Position numbers and translations under genes: made by a program. Shown here one piece after another: positions 7,485 to 53,452 of a stretch of 64,000 nt of DNA (its first letter is position 1; the number at the start of each line of letters is the position of its first letter). Source of the stretch: a virus. The notes under the pieces are model-generated. The model was not told the origin of the DNA. It did not search any database and saw nothing but the letters and a program-made list of their open reading frames with translations. The stretch lies in IMG/VR virus record IMGVR_UViG_3300020180_000010, positions 1-64,000 of that record; one strand, 5' to 3'.

Positions 7485-8956
7485 TAGCTTACCGTTATTG
7501 TGAATGTAGATGTGAGTAAATTATCTGATCGCCATACATCGTAACTCCTAGTTACACCGTTTCTAGTTATCTGCACTGTTGTGGTGAGGGTGAACGGGAT
7601 AACGAATCCTGTGATCGCATCCTTTATCAATACAGTGCCGGAATTATATTGAGAATGCGAAGGCCAGAGAAAATTTACATATTGAGTCGCAGGACTGAAA
7701 GTCCTTGTCTGACCCCTACCGGTTTGTAATGAATCGCTGAATCCAGATTGCAACGTAACATTAAACACATCTGTACCACTAACGATAGAAGTACTCTTTA
7801 CTCCATAGTAAACATCACTCGTCCATTGTATTGTCCAGGAAGCATTCCTGGTGAATGGAGTACTGAAAGCACTAAGAGTAGCCGTGACGGTTGGATCCGC
7901 GCCTTCTGCCGAAGGATACTGTGTGCCGTTTCGTTTTATTGATCCGGCGAGTGTCGCCGCGGTATACGCGGAAGGAGTGACGCTCCACGAACCAGGGCCG
8001 ATATCTCCCGGATCAGTAGATCCGCCGTAAGTATTGGCAGCACTGGCTGTGGTGGGCGGGCCCGAAACATATGCGGCGGTGGCGGTGATCCCGGTAACAG
8101 TATCGCCTCTCCTATAAAGGAGAGTTCCGCCATCTGGAGATGATTTTCCCCAGGAAGTAATAGCAAAATCAGGATCAATATCAGCTTGTCTGAGACGTCT
8201 TGATCGGCGGTTCGATGCCGGGTCCTCTACTATTACGGCTCCAGCTATAGCGGCTCGGCCCGGGACCATTATTTCTATCGAGATGGCAGTCACGCCTACT
8301 ACGACGGTTCCGATGCTAGTATAATTTAGAAGTGCCCCGGCGTTAATGGTTCCTTCGGATACCGATACAAAGAAACCAGGAGTAAAATCAGTCGGAATGG
8401 AAAGGTCAGGGGTTCGGGTCCAGGCTCCTGAGGAGGCTATCCAGATTCCATTTTCTGCCGGAAGGGTTTGATTCATCGCCACGACCCTGTCACCCGTTAC
8501 CGTAGTGACGGAATCAACCGTAACGAGACCAGAAAGGCTTAGATTTGTAGTAGATGCGAGTCTTGCTATGTTTTTAACAGCAGTATAGTTATCCTGGGGA
8601 CCCCAGGCAGACCCATCCCAACTTAATGATTGGCCAATTATTGGCAAAGTATCCAGAACAGGTCTTCCCTGCAACCCTACAACAATTTGATTTATGGTAT
8701 TACCGTTTAAATCAGTACCGGGAGTAAAAAAACTACCAGTTCCGCCGGTTGCGATAGTTATGAACTGTTCTATATGATCTAGCCTGTTTCGAACAGTCGA
8801 GTATACAGAACTTGGTTTTACGCCTAATTCTGCTTCCACCGCCACGATAGCATCACGCAGAACATTTACTAATGCCGCGTCGACTGAACTAACCAGATTA
8901 ACTACATCTGGTAAAGATGCCGATGAATCAATGCCGTTGGGATAGATAGTGCTCAA
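7484..8956 (-). CDS. virion structural protein, paralog of 31061..32332
   Basis: Shared YP..D..LP.V, ELGVKPSSVYSTVRNRLD, NQIVVGLQ.RPV and C-terminal RSDN motifs. Confidence 0.75.
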   Translation of the reverse strand: MSTIYPNGIDSSASLPDVVNLVSSVDAALVNVLRDAIVAVEAELGVKPSSVYSTVRNRLDHIEQFITIATGGTGSFFTPGTDLNGNTINQIVVGLQGRPVLDTLPIIGQSLSWDGSAWGPQDNYTAVKNIARLASTTNLSLSGLVTVDSVTTVTGDRVVAMNQTLPAENGIWIASSGAWTRTPDLSIPTDFTPGFFVSVSEGTINAGALLNYTSIGTVVVGVTAISIEIMVPGRAAIAGAVIVEDPASNRRSRRLRQADIDPDFAITSWGKSSPDGGTLLYRRGDTVTGITATAAYVSGPPTTASAANTYGGSTDPGDIGPGSWSVTPSAYTAATLAGSIKRNGTQYPSAEGADPTVTATLSAFSTPFTRNASWTIQWTSDVYYGVKSTSIVSGTDVFNVTLQSGFSDSLQTGRGQTRTFSPATQYVNFLWPSHSQYNSGTVLIKDAITGFVIPFTLTTTVQITRNGVTRSYDVWRSDNLLTSTFTITVS

Positions 8957-8971
8957 TTCATTATTATTTTA

Positions 8972-8979
8972 AATTATGC
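8972..8979 (-). promoter_or_regulatory. candidate late-promoter element GCATAATT
   Basis: Same 8-mer lies 15-16 nt upstream of the first gene of both fibre cassettes (also 32349..32356). Confidence 0.4.
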
Positions 8980-8992
8980 CTGTATAACATAA

Positions 8993-9769
8993 TCAAAACA
9001 ATAGATCCGGAACGCGTGTCGGTACCCAAATATCATGAGTTGTATCCCAATCTATATAACTACTGTCGACCCAAACGTGGCCATTATTAGCCCAGGTCGA
9101 CCCCCAAGAATTTCTAATCCAGTATTGCCGTGTACCGTTTGTATGCCGGTATCCAGTAATGATCATTGCGTGAAGGCCATCATAATGGTCTGGTCTTGAA
9201 AAGACTTGATTCGGAAAGGCATTTTGAAAAGACTTTCCGACTCCAGTTGCAAAAACAACCGGATGTTGTGCTGAAAGAGCCGTTTCGATATCATTCAGTC
9301 TATCATTGCCGTTTGAGTCGATTCGGTAAAAATCCTCAATAGTATTATCATTGGCAGTTTTATAAGCAGATAAAGAAGGTTGAACAAATACCTTCATCGG
9401 GTCATATGGCCACGCGTCCTCTGGACATATCCCGAGACGTTTTAATGAATCGAATGCATTATGAATGTATGTTCCGTTATCTTGATCAGTTTGCTTATTG
9501 TACATCCTAGAATTCCAATATAGAAACATCCTGGAAAGCTGAACAACTGGCCTTCCTTCCAGTCCTAACAGGATCTCCAACGCGTCACTCGTTGCGTTAC
9601 AAACACAACTACCAATCTGATACTGATTACTAATTGGTGTCGATTCATTCAGAATGACTTCATTCTGAACCGTTGCTCCGGCTTGTTTTAATAATGGTGA
9701 CGATATACTTTTGAATGACTTATATGTAAGTCCGGGTGGGGAAGGCAGATATCCTGATGTTTTAAACAT
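8993..9769 (-). CDS. papain-like C1 cysteine peptidase
   Basis: NQYQIGSCVCNA, GLHAMIITGY, IRNSWG catalytic motifs. Confidence 0.92.
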   Translation of the reverse strand: MFKTSGYLPSPPGLTYKSFKSISSPLLKQAGATVQNEVILNESTPISNQYQIGSCVCNATSDALEILLGLEGRPVVQLSRMFLYWNSRMYNKQTDQDNGTYIHNAFDSLKRLGICPEDAWPYDPMKVFVQPSLSAYKTANDNTIEDFYRIDSNGNDRLNDIETALSAQHPVVFATGVGKSFQNAFPNQVFSRPDHYDGLHAMIITGYRHTNGTRQYWIRNSWGSTWANNGHVWVDSSYIDWDTTHDIWVPTRVPDLLF

Positions 9770-9774
9770 TTATT

Positions 9775-10104
9775 TTATTTCTTGTAATTAGATGAATAGG
9801 CGGGGCAAATACCAGTCGTGGTGACGGTATCGATTTGATCGCAATTAGTTATGATGGATAAACATTTTGGATAAACAGAAACTCCATTATCTTGGGTTTC
9901 GCGACAAAATTGCGCAAAAGACTTTCCACGTTTTGTCGGGTTGCCCAGCTCACAACGTAGATCATTAAGGTTCTTTTGTGCTGCTTCGCAATATTCCTGA
10001 TCCCGCACGATCGGCGTCGGGATAGGTCCGATAGGGCTGGAATTATTATGATTGCCAGCGCAATTAGGAAGTAATATTAAAAACAATAAAATTCTACATA
10101 TCAT
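9775..10104 (-). CDS. Cys-rich putative lipoprotein
   Basis: Internal start MICRILLFLILLPNC-AG gives a signal peptide with lipobox-like Cys. Confidence 0.65.
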   Translation of the reverse strand: MICRILLFLILLPNCAGNHNNSSPIGPIPTPIVRDQEYCEAAQKNLNDLRCELGNPTKRGKSFAQFCRETQDNGVSVYPKCLSIITNCDQIDTVTTTGICPAYSSNYKK

Positions 10105-10216
10105 CCGACACCCTAACTCTATAGAATAAAAATCATATTTTATCTTTTGAATGAATTGTCGAGAAGAATACCCTACGGCCAAGGCATTTGGAATGAAATC
10201 GTAGAATTCAGGAGAA

Positions 10217-10470
10217 TTGTACAGAACCGGCATCACAACAGGCTCCAAGCCTGTATTGGGAGGAGTATATAGTTTTTACGAAACTCATGGCCTTCCTTTG
10301 GACATATTGGTTGGGTTCCGGATTGGCTAGATATTTATGTCCAAGCCAAACAAGCTGGAATGAAACATAAAAGAATTGTTTCAAAAATGGAAGAAGCCAT
10401 ACAAGACTCTTTCGGAGCCGTGACTGCACAACACGTTACATTGGTTTTAAACGAGAAATTCGGAGAATAG
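10217..10470 (+). pseudogene. frameshifted small gene with an AlaRS-like FYETHGLPLD motif
   Basis: Frame A LYRTGITTGSKPVLGGVYSFYETHGLPLDIL; the -1 frame continues GWVPDWLDIY...KFGE* and ends 1 nt before the vWA start. Confidence 0.5.
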
Positions 10471-10471
10471 A

Positions 10472-11167
10472 ATGAAAGAAAACTTTACGTCAATCAATGT
10501 AGTTTTGGACCGTAGCGGTTCTATGAAAGAACTCGCGAACGATACCATCGGTAGTTTTAATGCCCTTCTGAAAGATCAGAAGGAATTACCATATGAAGCG
10601 GTATTTACGCTCTGTACCTTTAATACCGATTATCATTTGGTACATGATTCGGTTCCACTGAAAGATATCCCGGATCTTGATGATAAATCATATCGTTGTA
10701 GTGGCGGGACATCCCTGTTGGATGCTGTCGGAGCGACCATCACATCCGTAGGTAATAAATTAGCGCGGATGCCGGAATCGGATCGCCCGAGCAAAGTTAT
10801 CTTCCTAATCATTACGGATGGTGAAGAGAATTCGAGCCATGAATTTACGAAAGAACAAGTATCCAGTATGGTTCAGCATCAGCGGGACCATTATAAGTGG
10901 GAATTTGTTTTCATGGGTGCGAACATCGATGCGTTCAAAAATGGGACTTCGTTGGGAGTAGATAGTCGCAATACAATGAATTATTCCGCCACGTCAGTCG
11001 GAACGAAGGGTCTTTACGGACAGGTATCAAATTCTCTTAGAAGCTATAGAGGCGGAAATAGCGGGCCTCAGGTTGATTTCTTTAATCAACCAGAAGAAAA
11101 CAAGACTGATTCTAAAGATCTTAATGTAGTTCCGAGCAAAAATCCTCAGGATCAGAATAATAACTGA
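10472..11167 (+). CDS. von Willebrand factor A domain protein
   Basis: MIDAS motif DRSGSM, GGTSLLDA, ITDGEEN. Confidence 0.9.
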   Translation: MKENFTSINVVLDRSGSMKELANDTIGSFNALLKDQKELPYEAVFTLCTFNTDYHLVHDSVPLKDIPDLDDKSYRCSGGTSLLDAVGATITSVGNKLARMPESDRPSKVIFLIITDGEENSSHEFTKEQVSSMVQHQRDHYKWEFVFMGANIDAFKNGTSLGVDSRNTMNYSATSVGTKGLYGQVSNSLRSYRGGNSGPQVDFFNQPEENKTDSKDLNVVPSKNPQDQNNN

Positions 11168-13640: not shown

Positions 13641-14494
13641 TGTATGTTCTGCAAGATTTTGATGATAGTTTAGAGCGGATTATTAATCATGGCATTAGAA
13701 AACCCAACCGAACCGGTATCGATACCGTAAGTTCGTTTGGCCTACATTGTAGGTACATGATAGGTGACGCTTTCCCTATACCGACTAAACGTAGAACTGT
13801 TTATAAATCTATTTTTGCCGAATTGCTATGGATGATATCGGGTTCGACAGATGTCAATGACCTTGAAAAAATGGGAAGCAGAATCTGGACTGCTTGGCGC
13901 GATTCTGAATTTGAAAAGAGAAACGGTTACGATGCAGGTGAACTAGGCCCGATCTATGGCTGGAGTTTTCGCCATTTTGGTGCTCCGTATTCCTCACGAA
14001 AAGGACCCGCTGGAGGTGCGGACCAGGTTCAATACATAATTGATGAATTGAATCGAGACAGATTCTCCCGAAGAGCCCTGATAAATCTTTGGGATCCGAA
14101 CGTCATGACGACAGATCAGGTAAAACTTCCGACTTGTCATTATAGCTTTCAGGTTCTACTGGATACTCAGGATCGTTTAACCGGAATCCTGACTCAACGT
14201 TCAGGTGATTGGTTGCCAGGAGTCAGTGCAAATATCTATTTCTATTCGGCTCTCATGTACATGTTTGCGCAACAATTAAACGCAACTCCGTATGAACTGA
14301 TTCATAATGTCGCGGATGCACATGTATATGTTAATCAATTTGATGCGGCGAGAGAATATCTATCGAGACCCGCAATCGATTCACCAAAATTAATACTTAA
14401 TAAAGCAAAATCGATATTTGATTACAAACTAGAAGATTTTGTTATCCAGGATTATTTCCCTGGAGAAAAAATTACAGTTCCGGTGGCGGTTTAA
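13640..14494 (+). CDS. thyA: thymidylate synthase
   Basis: NRTG, ELLW, LGPIYG, SRR, LPTCH, QRSGD...N, DAHVY. Confidence 0.95.
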   Translation: MYVLQDFDDSLERIINHGIRKPNRTGIDTVSSFGLHCRYMIGDAFPIPTKRRTVYKSIFAELLWMISGSTDVNDLEKMGSRIWTAWRDSEFEKRNGYDAGELGPIYGWSFRHFGAPYSSRKGPAGGADQVQYIIDELNRDRFSRRALINLWDPNVMTTDQVKLPTCHYSFQVLLDTQDRLTGILTQRSGDWLPGVSANIYFYSALMYMFAQQLNATPYELIHNVADAHVYVNQFDAAREYLSRPAIDSPKLILNKAKSIFDYKLEDFVIQDYFPGEKITVPVAV

Positions 14495-14760
14495 TGAAAA
14501 GTAAATCTGTTTATGTGAACGGCCTTTTAAGACGAAAAGGATCTCAACCTTATCATGACTATAGCGAAGTGGATGGAGAAATAATTTTTCGATTTAAAAT
14601 AAAAAGATCAGATGAGGTTACGTTTCATCATTACCGAGACGGTATTCTTCATTATGAAGAAATTATAGATGTGTACGATACTCCGCCCGGCACTCCTATC
14701 AGAATTGCGAATCGTTACGTTAATAATCATGTAGATGATAAATTAATGAATTTAATATAA
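14494..14760 (+). CDS. hypothetical protein with shared C-terminal motif (KLMNLI)
   Basis: 88 aa ORF coupled to the thyA stop. Confidence 0.65.
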   Translation: MKSKSVYVNGLLRRKGSQPYHDYSEVDGEIIFRFKIKRSDEVTFHHYRDGILHYEEIIDVYDTPPGTPIRIANRYVNNHVDDKLMNLI

Positions 14761-14799
14761 CGGAGAAACAAGACGTAGGTATTATGATATATTGGTACG

Positions 14800-14839
14800 G
14801 AACCCAGAGAGGGTTCTATAATTGGCACACGGAGAGTGT
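14800..14839 (+). promoter_or_regulatory. twin-hairpin leader, copy 1
   Basis: GAACCC-AGAGA-GGGTTC then ACAC-GGAGA-GTGT just before ATG 14843. Confidence 0.7.
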
Positions 14840-14842
14840 ATT

Positions 14843-15844
14843 ATGAGTTATACATTTCAGTATTGCGTTTGTATTGGTCGTTTTCAGCCATTCCATAATG
14901 GCCACCATGAGTTGGTCAGGGAGGCTTTGAGTCAAGCCGAGACTGTTTTGATTGTTATCGGGAGTACTGATAAGGCCCCGAACATTCAAAACCCTTGGAC
15001 AGCGGATCAGCGCGAGGCGATGATTCTTTCGGCCCTGACGGATCAAGAGAAGGAACGAGTCAAATTCGTTCAAGTTCGTGATTTCTGGTATACTCAGAAC
15101 CGTTGGTTAACGGAAGTCCAGCGGCGCGTATACGATGCTACGGATGGCATTGATGATGATAAAATTTGCGATGTTGGAGAAGTAAGTTATTTTCCTCAGT
15201 GGAAATTCTTCAAGATGCGCAACATCGATAGAATGCCACACGCGACTACGATTCGCGATCTTTACTTTACCATGGATAATGCTTATAAAAACCATGTCAG
15301 TCCAGGCGTGGTGAATTATCTTGAAGAATTCAAAAAGACTGTTTCCTTTAAAAACTTGAAGGAAGAGTATGAGCATATCCGGAACTACCGGGCAGCCTGG
15401 ACCGGAGCACCGTTCCCTCCGACATTCGTTACAGTTGACTCCGTAGTTATCCGGAGCGGGCACGTCCTGACGGTCCGCCGTAAGGGGAATCCTGGTCGTG
15501 GTTTGATTGCTCTTCCGGGCGGTTTTTTAAACCAGAATGAAACGATTCTAGATGGTGCGCTCCGGGAATTGAAGGAAGAAACTGGTATAAAAGTCTCAAA
15601 GGAAGAATTGGAAAAGGCTGTGATTGAATCGAAGGTGTTTGATTATCCTGACCGATCCCTTAGAGGCCGGACCATCACCCATGCTTATTTAATTGATCTC
15701 GGTAGTGGAAACCTTCCACTTGTCAAGGGATCCGATGATGCCGATAAGGCATGGTGGATGTCTTTGAGCGATTTCTATACTATAGAAGATAGATTTTTTG
15801 AAGACCATTGGCAGATCATATCATATTTCTGTAGCAGATTCTGA
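14843..15844 (+). CDS. nadM: bifunctional NMN adenylyltransferase / Nudix hydrolase (NadM-Nudix, NatV-like)
   Basis: GRFQPFHNGH, NPWT, Nudix box GG...ET...GALRELKEETG, GSDDA, FEDH. Confidence 0.95.
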   Translation: MSYTFQYCVCIGRFQPFHNGHHELVREALSQAETVLIVIGSTDKAPNIQNPWTADQREAMILSALTDQEKERVKFVQVRDFWYTQNRWLTEVQRRVYDATDGIDDDKICDVGEVSYFPQWKFFKMRNIDRMPHATTIRDLYFTMDNAYKNHVSPGVVNYLEEFKKTVSFKNLKEEYEHIRNYRAAWTGAPFPPTFVTVDSVVIRSGHVLTVRRKGNPGRGLIALPGGFLNQNETILDGALRELKEETGIKVSKEELEKAVIESKVFDYPDRSLRGRTITHAYLIDLGSGNLPLVKGSDDADKAWWMSLSDFYTIEDRFFEDHWQIISYFCSRF

Positions 15845-15892
15845 TCTATCTTGTGCAGATGTTTTGGTTAATGTAAGGCAAGTCTTTTTAAA

Positions 15893-15933
15893 TCTTCCCA
15901 GTGAGGGAAGAGTCTGAATAATACGGAGAGTAT
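15893..15933 (+). promoter_or_regulatory. twin-hairpin leader, copy 2
   Basis: TCTTCCC-AGTGA-GGGAAGA then ATAC-GGAGA-GTAT just before ATG 15935. Confidence 0.7.
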
Positions 15934-15934
15934 C

Positions 15935-17344
15935 ATGAAAACGAATCGTTTTAGTTATCTTTTTGACACGGATTCTTATAAAGTAAGCCATTACAAGCAG
16001 TACCCGCCCGCCACAACAAGTATGTTTTCATATATTGAAAGCCGAGGTGGAGAGTACGATGAGACCGTATTTTTTGGTTTACAGTATTACCTTAAAGAAT
16101 ACCTTACACATCGTGTAACGGTGGAAGAGGTTGAGCAGGCGAAGAATCTTTTCGCACTCCACGGCGAGCCATTCAATTACGAAGGTTGGCTCTATATAGC
16201 AAAAGAGCTTGGCGGTAAGTTGCCAGTACGGATCCGCGCGGTTCCGGAAGGCATGGCCGTTCCGACCCATAACATTTTAGTTAGTATCGAATCAACTGAT
16301 CCAAAAGTATTCTGGATAGTCTCGTGGCTAGAAACCATGTTACTTCGTATCTGGTATCCAATCACCGTATCCACTAGAAGTCACTTTATCAAAAGCATCA
16401 TTATGGATGCATTGACTAAATCATCGGATGATCCTGAGGGTGAGATTAGTTTCAAACTTCATGACTTCGGTTCTCGTGGCGTCAGCAGTCAGGAATCGGC
16501 CATGATCGGCGGTGCGGCTCACCTTGTTAACTTCATGGGAAGCGATACGGTGGCTGGTGTTTTGATGGCTAATCTTTACTACAATATTCCGATGGCAGGA
16601 TTCAGTATTCCTGCGGCTGAACACAGTAGCATTACTTCTTGGGGAAAAGAAAATGAAGTTGAAGCCTATCGTAACATGCTTAAGCAGTTTGCAAAACCCG
16701 GAGCACTGGTTGCGTGCGTCTCTGACTCTTATGATTTATGGAACGCTTGCACTAATCTTTGGGGAGATGTTCTGCGTCAGGAAGTGATTGATTCTGGTGC
16801 AGTCGTGATCATTCGGCCTGACTCTGGATATCCTCCGCAAGTTGTCTGCAAGTGTGCCAGCCTTCTTGCTGAAAAATTTAGTTATACCGTTAATAGCAAG
16901 GGCTATAAGGTTATTAATAACGTTCGAATTATTCAGGGCGATGGCATAAATGAAGATTCGATTCAGATCATTTTGAATGACCTGTTGAAGGCGGGTTTCA
17001 GTGCAACCAATATTGCATTCGGTATGGGAGGAGCCCTTTTACAGACGGTGAATCGCGATACACAGAAATTCGCAATGAAGTGCAGCCATATATTCCGTAC
17101 CGTTGACGGTAAGTCAGTATCTGTTGATGTCTTCAAAAATCCCATTACTGACCCTGGAAAAGCAAGCAAGGCTGGTCGTCTGGACCTTGCTTTTACGGAT
17201 GATCGTGGGTTCGAAACGGTTACGTTGTCTGATGACGAGTTTGCCAGCCAGCACAGCGTCATGCATACGGTTTATTTGAACGGTGAACTATTAAATGAAA
17301 CGACATTTGATGAGGTCCGCACGCGAGCTAAGAACTTTAAATGA
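15935..17344 (+). CDS. nadV: nicotinamide phosphoribosyltransferase
   Basis: TDSYKVSH, LHDFGSRG, IPAAEHS, VSDSYD, RPDSG, QGDG, FGMGG. Confidence 0.96.
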   Translation: MKTNRFSYLFDTDSYKVSHYKQYPPATTSMFSYIESRGGEYDETVFFGLQYYLKEYLTHRVTVEEVEQAKNLFALHGEPFNYEGWLYIAKELGGKLPVRIRAVPEGMAVPTHNILVSIESTDPKVFWIVSWLETMLLRIWYPITVSTRSHFIKSIIMDALTKSSDDPEGEISFKLHDFGSRGVSSQESAMIGGAAHLVNFMGSDTVAGVLMANLYYNIPMAGFSIPAAEHSSITSWGKENEVEAYRNMLKQFAKPGALVACVSDSYDLWNACTNLWGDVLRQEVIDSGAVVIIRPDSGYPPQVVCKCASLLAEKFSYTVNSKGYKVINNVRIIQGDGINEDSIQIILNDLLKAGFSATNIAFGMGGALLQTVNRDTQKFAMKCSHIFRTVDGKSVSVDVFKNPITDPGKASKAGRLDLAFTDDRGFETVTLSDDEFASQHSVMHTVYLNGELLNETTFDEVRTRAKNFK

Positions 17345-52093: not shown

Positions 52094-53452
52094 TCATTTT
52101 CGCTTATCGACAACTGATCCCATGAGCTTGCCGAAATTTGAACTCTTGGCGGCAATTTTTTCGCGAATCTTCTGCGCTTCCGATACCGTCTCATTCTTTC
52201 CCGTATCTAACTGTAAAGACAAGTTCCGCTGACTGTCTCGATTCTTAATCGTTTCGGTATGCTGCGCTACTTCAGCTTTCAGTTGTGTAATTCTGGATCC
52301 AGGAAGTCCCAATCCGCTAAATATCGAATAAACCTTCACACAGTCTTCATCCGACTCAACTGTATAGATTCCCTTGAACACGCCTTTTGGCGTTCCGCAT
52401 TGCTCATTAATCATTTCAAGGGCATAATTCACCGCAACGTTCGGAATCTGCCTCCAAACACGTTCCGGCGCAACAAACATCACTCCTACGTATTTTGATT
52501 GCTTCAAATCAAACCCACTTGCGAGAAGATTTGAATTCAAATTCTCAATAACAGCCTCGGCAATCGCAGTATTCTCCGTATATTGAGTTACTTTCATTTC
52601 ACCATAAATGGAAAGTCCCTCGCCATCAATAAATAATTTAGCCATTTCCGTAGGATCGAGCCCCTTCACCCCAGATGGCATACTAGACAGTGTATTGAAT
52701 ACCTCGATCGGCTCGACAATGGCTCGGTTAGCCATAGGATAAAAATCAAGCTGATTAATGTCTTGATAAATCGTTTCGATTTTAGCGTTATCCACTACGA
52801 TGAGATTGCTTACCTTCTTGGTTTCGGTAAGTTTAGCTAGTTTGCTGAGAGTTTCGAGAGAATTGCTTTTGGTTTGAGCATCCTCGGTACTCATGGGCAG
52901 CACCGTTATCACGATCAAGGGCTTCCCTAGTCCTGACAGGATATCCACGAGCGTTTCGCACGAACCTGCGCCGGAGCCTCCTCCCAAAGAAAGGCACAGG
53001 ATATTGACTTGGGAGGCCCCTAATCTGGAATGCAGAAGTTCAGTGATTTGGGGCCGATACATTTCGGCTGCCGCGCGACCAATTTCCAATTCCTTCGCCG
53101 CACCACCGAGAGAATAATCCAATAGAAGCTTGTTAGCTTCTGGAATCTTGATGAATTTCAAATCTTGAGATGCGGTATTCAGTACAACAGTATCGTAGCC
53201 TTCATTATATAGACATTCGGCGAGTCTTGAGCCGCCCTGACCGCTCCCTATGACTCCGAACGCGATGCTACGTGTTTTCTTTTCTACAATCTTCATATCA
53301 TTTTTCTTTTTATCAGCCAATTTCGCTTTAAGTGAGCTAAGTTTGGCTTCGTCTACATTGGGTTCGGTATTCTCCGGAACCTTTACATCTGAAATATCAT
53401 CCATCAAAACCTCTGCGTCATTATGATCAGTAATTTCGTTTCTTACAGACAT
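52094..53452 (-). CDS. tubulin/FtsZ-superfamily GTPase
   Basis: GSGQGGSRLA, NTA.QD, GGAAK, signature SLGGGSGAG, VDN, LDPTE. Confidence 0.9.
   Translation of the reverse strand: MSVRNEITDHNDAEVLMDDISDVKVPENTEPNVDEAKLSSLKAKLADKKKNDMKIVEKKTRSIAFGVIGSGQGGSRLAECLYNEGYDTVVLNTASQDLKFIKIPEANKLLLDYSLGGAAKELEIGRAAAEMYRPQITELLHSRLGASQVNILCLSLGGGSGAGSCETLVDILSGLGKPLIVITVLPMSTEDAQTKSNSLETLSKLAKLTETKKVSNLIVVDNAKIETIYQDINQLDFYPMANRAIVEPIEVFNTLSSMPSGVKGLDPTEMAKLFIDGEGLSIYGEMKVTQYTENTAIAEAVIENLNSNLLASGFDLKQSKYVGVMFVAPERVWRQIPNVAVNYALEMINEQCGTPKGVFKGIYTVESDEDCVKVYSIFSGLGLPGSRITQLKAEVAQHTETIKNRDSQRNLSLQLDTGKNETVSEAQKIREKIAAKSSNFGKLMGSVVDKRK

Follow-up and report, generated by a model that had tools for sequence, protein, structure and literature searches.

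Analysed here are the first 64 kb (the window) of an uncultured virus record of 124,347 bases, IMGVR_UViG_3300020180_000010, for which CheckV gives a completeness of 29%. The window carries two nicotinamide adenine dinucleotide (NAD) salvage genes arranged head to tail on the plus strand. The first, nadM-Nudix (14843..15844; hereafter nadM), encodes a 333 aa nicotinamide mononucleotide (NMN) adenylyltransferase with a Nudix domain (Pfam CTP_transf_like and NUDIX). The second, nadV (15935..17344), encodes a 469 aa nicotinamide phosphoribosyltransferase (Pfam NAMPT_N and NAPRTase). The nadM ATG at 14843 is in agreement with the starts of homologues. Each gene is preceded by a leader element approximately 45 bases long that is made up of two hairpins, and this twin-hairpin leader is the subject of the present analysis.

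Hairpin 1 of the nadM leader (14799..14817, plus strand) reads GGAACCC-AGAGA-GGGTTCT and has seven pairs, of which the outermost is G-T and the closing pair C-G. A 9-base linker leads to hairpin 2 (14827..14839, plus strand; ACAC-GGAGA-GTGT, four pairs), the loop of which (14831-14835) is the Shine-Dalgarno sequence, and ATT separates hairpin 2 from the start codon. In the nadV leader, hairpin 1 (15893..15911, plus strand; TCTTCCC-AGTGA-GGGAAGA, seven pairs, closing C-G) is followed by a 9-base linker, by hairpin 2 (15921..15933, plus strand; ATAC-GGAGA-GTAT, four pairs, Shine-Dalgarno loop at 15925-15929) and by a single C before the ATG at 15935. These sequences and positions agree with a first-pass annotation of the window, which had pointed out that all four hairpins present a 5-base RGWGA loop on a closing C-G pair and that the second loop is the Shine-Dalgarno sequence in both leaders. 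That annotation gave the nadM linker as 10 bases, which becomes 9 once the outer G-T pair is counted. It also described the loops as starting exactly 25 bases apart; this is correct for both leaders here (14806/14831 and 15900/15925), but the distance is not fixed and varies from 21 to 30 bases among relatives.

The structure of the leaders is beyond chance in this record. Hairpins with at least four pairs, a closing C-G and an RGWGA loop occur seven times on both strands of the 124,347 bases, and four of the seven are the leader hairpins. The covariance model R1, trained on 24 homologous leaders, scores 50.6 and 49.0 bits at the two leaders, the next best site reaching 12.5 bits (E 0.13), so that the nadM and nadV sites are the only ones it finds in the record and the earlier observation that the element precedes no other gene holds. 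Chance or a recent duplication was ruled out as the origin of the pair, since the stem sequences are different but compensated, and other genomes carry separate orthologues of each leader. Hairpin 1 is not terminator-like in either leader, with no T run following it, and no pseudoknot or kissing partners for the loops were seen by eye in the leaders or early coding sequence, where no formal search was made. The opposite strand folds too, and fold energy does not separate the strands; it also shows hairpin 2 to be only marginally stable.

Searching IMG/VR with NadV returned 80 loci, and in the closer relatives the same twin hairpin stands before both nadV and nadM with different stem sequences. 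From the two leaders of the window it had been proposed that pairing is kept by compensatory changes, and this extends to the relatives. In an alignment of 24 leaders (A2), 91.3% of cells are paired compared with 65.2% after shuffling, and the covariation score is 0.697 against 0.213. Both-sided changes are seen in 10 of the 11 pairs, a score this high occurs in none of 500 shuffles, and controls with slid partner columns reach no more than 0.206; because the sequences are related, these shuffle counts are not to be read as probabilities. A second alignment (A3) of 48 model matches, 40 of them distinct rows, gives 90.0% paired cells versus 66.4% shuffled and a covariation score of 0.590 versus 0.158, although it is not fully independent of A2, as it shares some leaders with it and is fitted to the model. 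The same stem pairs are seen to switch repeatedly among A-U, U-A, G-C and C-G.

While the stems vary in this way, the centre is conserved. Across 63 distinct leaders hairpin 1 is closed by C-G without exception, and its loop is AGAGA in 36 and AGTGA in 20, the other seven being ACTGA, GGAGA, GGTGA, AGCGA or ACAGA. The hairpin 2 loop of the same leaders is GGAGA in 57, GGTGA in three, GGAGG in one and AGAGA in one, with one row misaligned. These counts give a single consensus, C-RGWGA-G, for both loops. Hairpin 2 is nearly fixed as AC-GGAGA-GU, with two outer pairs that covary (ACAC/GUGU, AUAC/GUAU, UCAC/GUGA). In 43 distinct leaders the distance from loop to loop is 21-30 bases (mean 25.4, sd 2.0), and the 25-base spacing is thus a family mean and not a fixed rule; outliers at 33 and 55 bases occur as well. 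The linkers of these 43 leaders, 5-15 bases long, are unrelated in sequence, as had been stated for the two in the window, and the gap between hairpin 2 and the ATG is 0-6 bases. A negative correlation between stem length and linker length is built into how both are measured and was not used as evidence.

Some relatives depart from this plan. At nadV of locus L008 the hairpin 2 loop is AGAGA, so that the GGAG core is gone and the hairpin is retained. Locus L003 has extra twin-hairpin copies at 601-658 and 1053-1105, with GGTGA as the second loop; they stand before a 108-aa open reading frame (ORF) with no assigned function and a gene for an HNH endonuclease inserted just upstream of nadM, and 20-35 bases separate their second hairpin from the start codon. 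The second hairpin of the L003 nadM leader itself is altered. The L008 loop and the L003 copies indicate that the hairpin 2 loop is not conserved only as a ribosome-binding site. In G+C-rich relatives (L022, L020, L115, L144, L109, L106, L099 and L111), hairpin 1 read by eye consists of a lower stem, a 5' bulge of approximately three bases and an upper stem of six pairs. A third covarying hairpin was also observed 5' of the nadM leader in these relatives (GATGGC...GCCATC, GACGG...CCGTC, GTGGC...GCCAC).

We next consider how specific the element is for the two genes. Two near-complete relatives, G003 (309 kb, 91% complete) and G004 (340 kb, 99%), have two model matches each, at nadM and nadV. 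A scan of 2.9 million IMG/VR viral contigs with an exact pattern returned 48 stretches (47 distinct matches). Of the distinct matches, nadM lies downstream of 26 and nadV of 20, and one lies elsewhere, before an 18-codon ORF and without a proper first stem. The same pattern matched 36 times in 185,579 prokaryote genomes, just once before a nadM/nadV homologue. No neighbouring gene besides nadM and nadV is common to the window and the relatives' loci. A small neighbouring gene was considered as the regulator and set aside, orf88 (14494-14760) and four other neighbouring ORFs having no homologue in the fetched loci. In the PeSL of T4-type phages, the same promoter and stem-loop are repeated before many early genes. 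A cassette of that type was rejected here, as there are only two model matches in this record and two in each of the two near-complete relatives, and the conserved box upstream of the nadM leader (see below) occurs once.

The single bacterial copy is found in a metagenome-assembled genome titled uncultured Terracidiphilus (G006 contig 20; locus L184, about 8291-10700, minus strand), where the order is leader, nadM-Nudix and the nicotinate phosphoribosyltransferase gene pncB; no nadV is present in the 14 kb examined. The context looks chromosomal, with a phage-type integrase gene approximately 2 kb upstream, and the leader may have been acquired from a phage. A second model match in G006 (20.3 bits), before an unannotated ORF and a CBS/M50 peptidase gene, was treated as noise. 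No match at E up to 0.001 was found in 150 other genomes sampled from the same bacterial class.

More distant phages with nadV or nadM have leaders of the same architecture and different loops. In one form the first hairpin is G-ATAGA-C and is followed by an A/U-rich hairpin of 5-7 pairs that extends up to the ATG and has the Shine-Dalgarno sequence in its 5-base loop. G-ATAGA-C hairpins occur 54 times in 1.1 Mb of loci (both strands), 48 of them within 110 bases before nadM or nadV. At the loci from the NadV search, C-RGWGA-G and ATAGA leaders number 11 and 25 among 65 distinct nadV leaders, and 12 and 14 among 49 distinct nadM leaders. A third form, in the L038-L081 group, has a G-GUAGU-C first hairpin (also GCAGU and GUGGU) before nadM, then a Shine-Dalgarno hairpin such as ATTCTAA-GGAGT-TTAGAAT; in many phages with this form the Shine-Dalgarno hairpin of nadV contains the stop codon of nadM. 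By eye, nadM of Acidovorax phage ACP17 has a Shine-Dalgarno hairpin and a different upstream hairpin, with none at its nadV, and Ralstonia phage RsoM2USA nadV has a Shine-Dalgarno hairpin only.

Comparison of these sequences supports an element that is tied to the two NAD-salvage genes, acts at the RNA level, covaries and sits on the ribosome-binding site, and we regard it as very likely that it is a functional cis-acting RNA on the nadM and nadV mRNAs. As to what reads it, the explanation we favour, with a probability of roughly 0.4, is that a protein encoded with the genes does so and that the leader is an autogenous translational operator. The architecture stays the same while the hairpin 1 loop and closing pair are changed between lineages, so the reader most likely co-evolves with the genes; loops that change between lineages, as in co-evolving RNA-protein pairs, favour a protein over a metabolite pocket. 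Two like loops at a constrained distance would also suit a two-sided binder. Such a protein, presumably dimeric, would hold both loops and cover the Shine-Dalgarno loop, and when bound it would keep the 30S subunit off and thereby set the output of both enzymes.

The simplest candidate for this protein is NadM-Nudix, which would act on its own mRNA and on that of nadV. It is the sole gene product present wherever the motif is found. Four records with the motif on nadV all have nadM elsewhere, and record G160 has the motif on nadM and none on its distant nadV. The complete 452-kb phage genome G005 has a nadV that is 72% identical to the one in the window, and has neither nadM-Nudix nor the motif. 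A terminator-like hairpin precedes nadV in G005 instead. NadV had been put forward as an alternative reader, and its case is weakened by the bacterial copy, which precedes a nadM-pncB operon with no nadV in the 14 kb examined. According to Pfam neither NadM-Nudix nor NadV has a domain beyond those expected.

Several observations weigh against an autogenous operator. RNA binding by NadM-Nudix or NadV is a hypothetical activity, and the association of the motif with nadM comes from a small number of genomes that share descent. The loop classes could equally follow host lineages, and hence a host protein. Neither the C-RGWGA-G nor the ATAGA form is present in 29 of the 65 nadV leaders and 23 of the 49 nadM leaders, and the nadV of Vibrio phage nt-1 lacks the motif (by eye). 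In the extra copies of L003 the distance from hairpin 2 to the start codon means that a masked Shine-Dalgarno sequence does not explain everything. Within the window, the minimum-energy fold of the nadM leader pairs the Shine-Dalgarno region with early coding sequence and not within hairpin 2, and the fold energies of the leaders are unremarkable (z -1.8 and -0.8). Finally, G-U pairs outnumber A-C mismatches by just 17 to 9 in 630 inner cells; with so modest a bias, the assignment of the element to one strand depends mainly on position and loop asymmetry.

It is also conceivable, although unlikely, that a host RNA-binding regulator reads the hairpins, in which case the phage would tie the synthesis of its NAD-salvage enzymes to the nucleotide state of the host; a tie to phosphoribosyl pyrophosphate (PRPP) is suggested because NadV consumes PRPP. 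The best lead is a PyrR-type protein. PyrR is a regulator with a phosphoribosyltransferase fold that binds RNA as a nucleotide-loaded dimer, and its binding site (RF00515) is the sole Rfam family that touches the element, below threshold and in the nadV leader. A 101-base scan gave 14.6 bits over 15880-15955, and a scan of the whole record gave 17.9 bits (E 0.35), the only match in the record. The Rfam apical consensus is CCaGaGAGG, and its lower-case, variable positions are those that vary in C-[R]-G-[W]-G-A-G. The PyrR apical core CCAGAGAGG is present, hairpin 1 reading CCCAGAGAGGG at nadM and CCCAGTGAGGG at nadV, with a loop of five bases and not six. According to a review, the PyrR dimer bound to uridine monophosphate (UMP) binds ARUCCAGAGAGGYU (PMC7430163). 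The lower stem, 5' bulge and 6-pair upper stem of the G+C-rich relatives also resemble the PyrR loop by eye.

Set against this likeness, the scores of 14.6-17.9 bits are far below the gathering score of 54, and RF00515 has no match in the nadM leader, in the records of four relatives or in the bacterial genome that carries the motif. The hairpins of the window have no internal bulge, and the PyrR loop is drawn as six bases with a U-G pair, whereas here the loop has five bases and the pairs are Watson-Crick throughout. The ATAGA and GUAGU forms fall outside the PyrR consensus. There is no pyr gene or terminator context, the downstream genes being nadM and nadV, and no Pribosyltran (PF00156) gene was found in the phage records.

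CsrA is a less likely host reader. CsrA/RsmA sites have GGA in the loops of both sites, and recognition of this kind had been suggested for the leaders. The hairpin 2 loop does contain GGA and there are two sites, but 56 of the 63 hairpin 1 loops are AGAGA or AGTGA and have no GGA. No csrA was found in five phage records by a search whose control matched in three known genomes. A search of five phage records for the RegA family (PF01818) gave no match, with a control that itself matched nowhere.

Slightly lower still we place a miniature twin-hairpin riboswitch, in which a ligand (NAD+, NMN, nicotinamide, ADP-ribose or PRPP), held by the like loops or between them, would hide or free the Shine-Dalgarno loop. 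The architecture matches that of guanidine-II (PMC5558903 and PMC5486947), with two stem-loops, near-identical conserved loops and a variable linker, and the NAD+-I riboswitch similarly has two tandem stem-loops with the ribosome-binding site in the second (PMC7297122 and PMC7708056). The element is strictly associated with the genes for two enzymes of a single pathway; it is found in many phages that have no other neighbouring gene in common and once in a bacterium, and no regulator gene is conserved nearby. Few bases are invariant, however; those of hairpin 1 are chiefly its closing pair and the final two bases of its loop. The loop is swapped and the closing pair flipped in other lineages (ATAGA, GUAGU), which would be unusual for a pocket that binds a universal metabolite. 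Furthermore, two purine-rich loops are unable to form Watson-Crick kissing pairs, there is no conserved alternative (switching) structure and no Rfam riboswitch family matches. The more specific idea of a new, very small class of phage riboswitch, in which the like purine loops together sense NAD+, ADP-ribose or nicotinamide, appears improbable. If it were true, it would let the phage switch on its NAD+-rebuilding enzymes only after host immunity drains NAD+.

We give similarly little weight to the idea that the leader has no dedicated reader. Hairpin 1 would then be a 5' stabiliser or processing signal, and hairpin 2 would present the Shine-Dalgarno sequence and tune translation, both enzymes having to be made in fixed, limited amounts. 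A -10-like hexamer (TATAAT or TATACT) stands a few bases ahead of hairpin 1 in the ATAGA-type leaders, which would place the hairpin at the 5' end of the mRNA. In the window, a conserved box, TAGGTATTATGATATAT (14776..14792, plus strand), is directly 5' of the nadM leader. The pattern TAGG-N(5-9)-[GT]ATATA occurs once in the 124-kb record, a similar box (TAGGCATAACGATATAT) is at the equivalent place in A+T-rich relatives, and the box may be a cassette-specific promoter or an additional part of the leader. A strong, exposed Shine-Dalgarno sequence is also unusual here, since a GGAG/GAGG/AGGA core at -20 to -4 is found in just 33 of 122 crude ORF calls of the record, indicating low Shine-Dalgarno use. 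A stabiliser nevertheless requires a stem and not a conserved loop and closing pair. It would not be restricted to two genes per 300-kb genome, nor would it persist separately on nadV directly after nadM, and the spacing of the loops is constrained to 21-30 bases.

A site that acts at the DNA level, namely an NrtR-type repressor operator or a hairpin promoter, can be all but dismissed: each hairpin is an inverted repeat in DNA, its opposite strand also folds and bacteria are known to control nadM and nadV through NrtR-type repressors, but in the NrtR operator, a palindrome, the arms are conserved and a Nudix-winged helix-turn-helix repressor recognises the double-stranded DNA, whereas here the arms vary with compensation around a conserved, asymmetric, purine-rich centre, the reverse of what an arm-reading dimeric DNA-binding protein would leave. 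The element lies on the sense strand in every case and stops 0-6 bases short of the ATG, its second loop contains the Shine-Dalgarno sequence, its stems include G-U pairs, and the NadM-Nudix of the window has no DNA-binding domain by Pfam. An NrtR operator had been named as a match that would overturn the RNA interpretation; the covarying, differing arms and asymmetric centre do not fit one, on the evidence of the leaders themselves, as no search for an NrtR gene was made.

Elsewhere the window encodes a PhuZ-like tubulin, ribonucleotide reductase, thymidylate synthase, dihydrofolate reductase, RNA ligase and PhoH, a gene content consistent with part of a very large phage genome. The match to phage tubulin PhuZ is weak (PHROG 4733, E 1e-9; a 452-aa protein at 52094-53452, minus strand) and hints at a jumbo phage that forms a nucleus or uses a spindle. 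No GenBank phage is near-identical to the window, and the distant matches are restricted to the nadV coding sequence. DNA of the record is found in microbial-mat metagenome runs, and none of the public sequencing runs listed as containing it is RNA.

NadV together with NadM-Nudix (NARP2) rebuilds NAD+ from nicotinamide and is reported to counter bacterial immunity that depletes NAD+ (PMC13464706). If both genes do carry a dedicated, conserved control RNA, phages would be regulating a counter-defence that until now has been regarded as simply expressed. Any reader would be new for phage gene control, whether a moonlighting enzyme that acts as a repressor, a hijacked host PyrR-type protein or a metabolite. 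The leader is directly testable because it is short and clearly defined, with dozens of variants that carry natural compensatory mutations. A leader RNA preceding phage nadV or nadM was not described in the literature covered, which leaves out most subscription journals.

Among known RNAs, no Rfam 15 family reaches threshold, in keeping with the earlier remark that this is not a named riboswitch, and the models of the two NAD+ riboswitches, NAD+-I (nadA) and NAD+-II (pnuC), had no match (E up to 10) when 5 kb, 91 bases and 101 bases were scanned. NAD+-I is nevertheless similar in that it regulates an NAD gene and consists of a tandem pair of similar stem-loops, the second domain carrying the ribosome-binding site (PMC6859854, PMC7297122 and PMC7708056). 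It differs in having its conserved bases in the ACANCCCC bulge and an internal loop, whereas here they are in the terminal loops, and in its location upstream of nadA in Acidobacteria. Guanidine-II (mini-ykkC) likewise consists of two small stem-loops with like loops and a variable linker (PMC5558903), but its loops are ACGR tetraloops that pair together, in contrast to the 5-base RGWGA loops found here, which have no complementarity and no Rfam match. With the PyrR loop the element shares the apical consensus, and the PyrR reader is a dimeric enzyme-like protein (PMC7430163); the PyrR loop, however, is a single loop with a terminator/antiterminator on pyr genes, and here twin hairpins lie on the ribosome-binding site of NAD genes.

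By analogy only, the autogenous operator that we favour resembles that of E. coli thrS, in which a dimeric enzyme, competing with the ribosome, reads the hairpins next to the ribosome-binding site with its two halves. Both have two hairpins beside the ribosome-binding site and, for the leaders described here, a dimeric enzyme would be the reader. The thrS hairpins differ in that they mimic the natural RNA substrate of the enzyme, and we know of no RNA substrate of NadM or NadV. The element files as a new family, absent from Rfam, of a known kind of RNA, the cis-acting leader at a ribosome-binding site.

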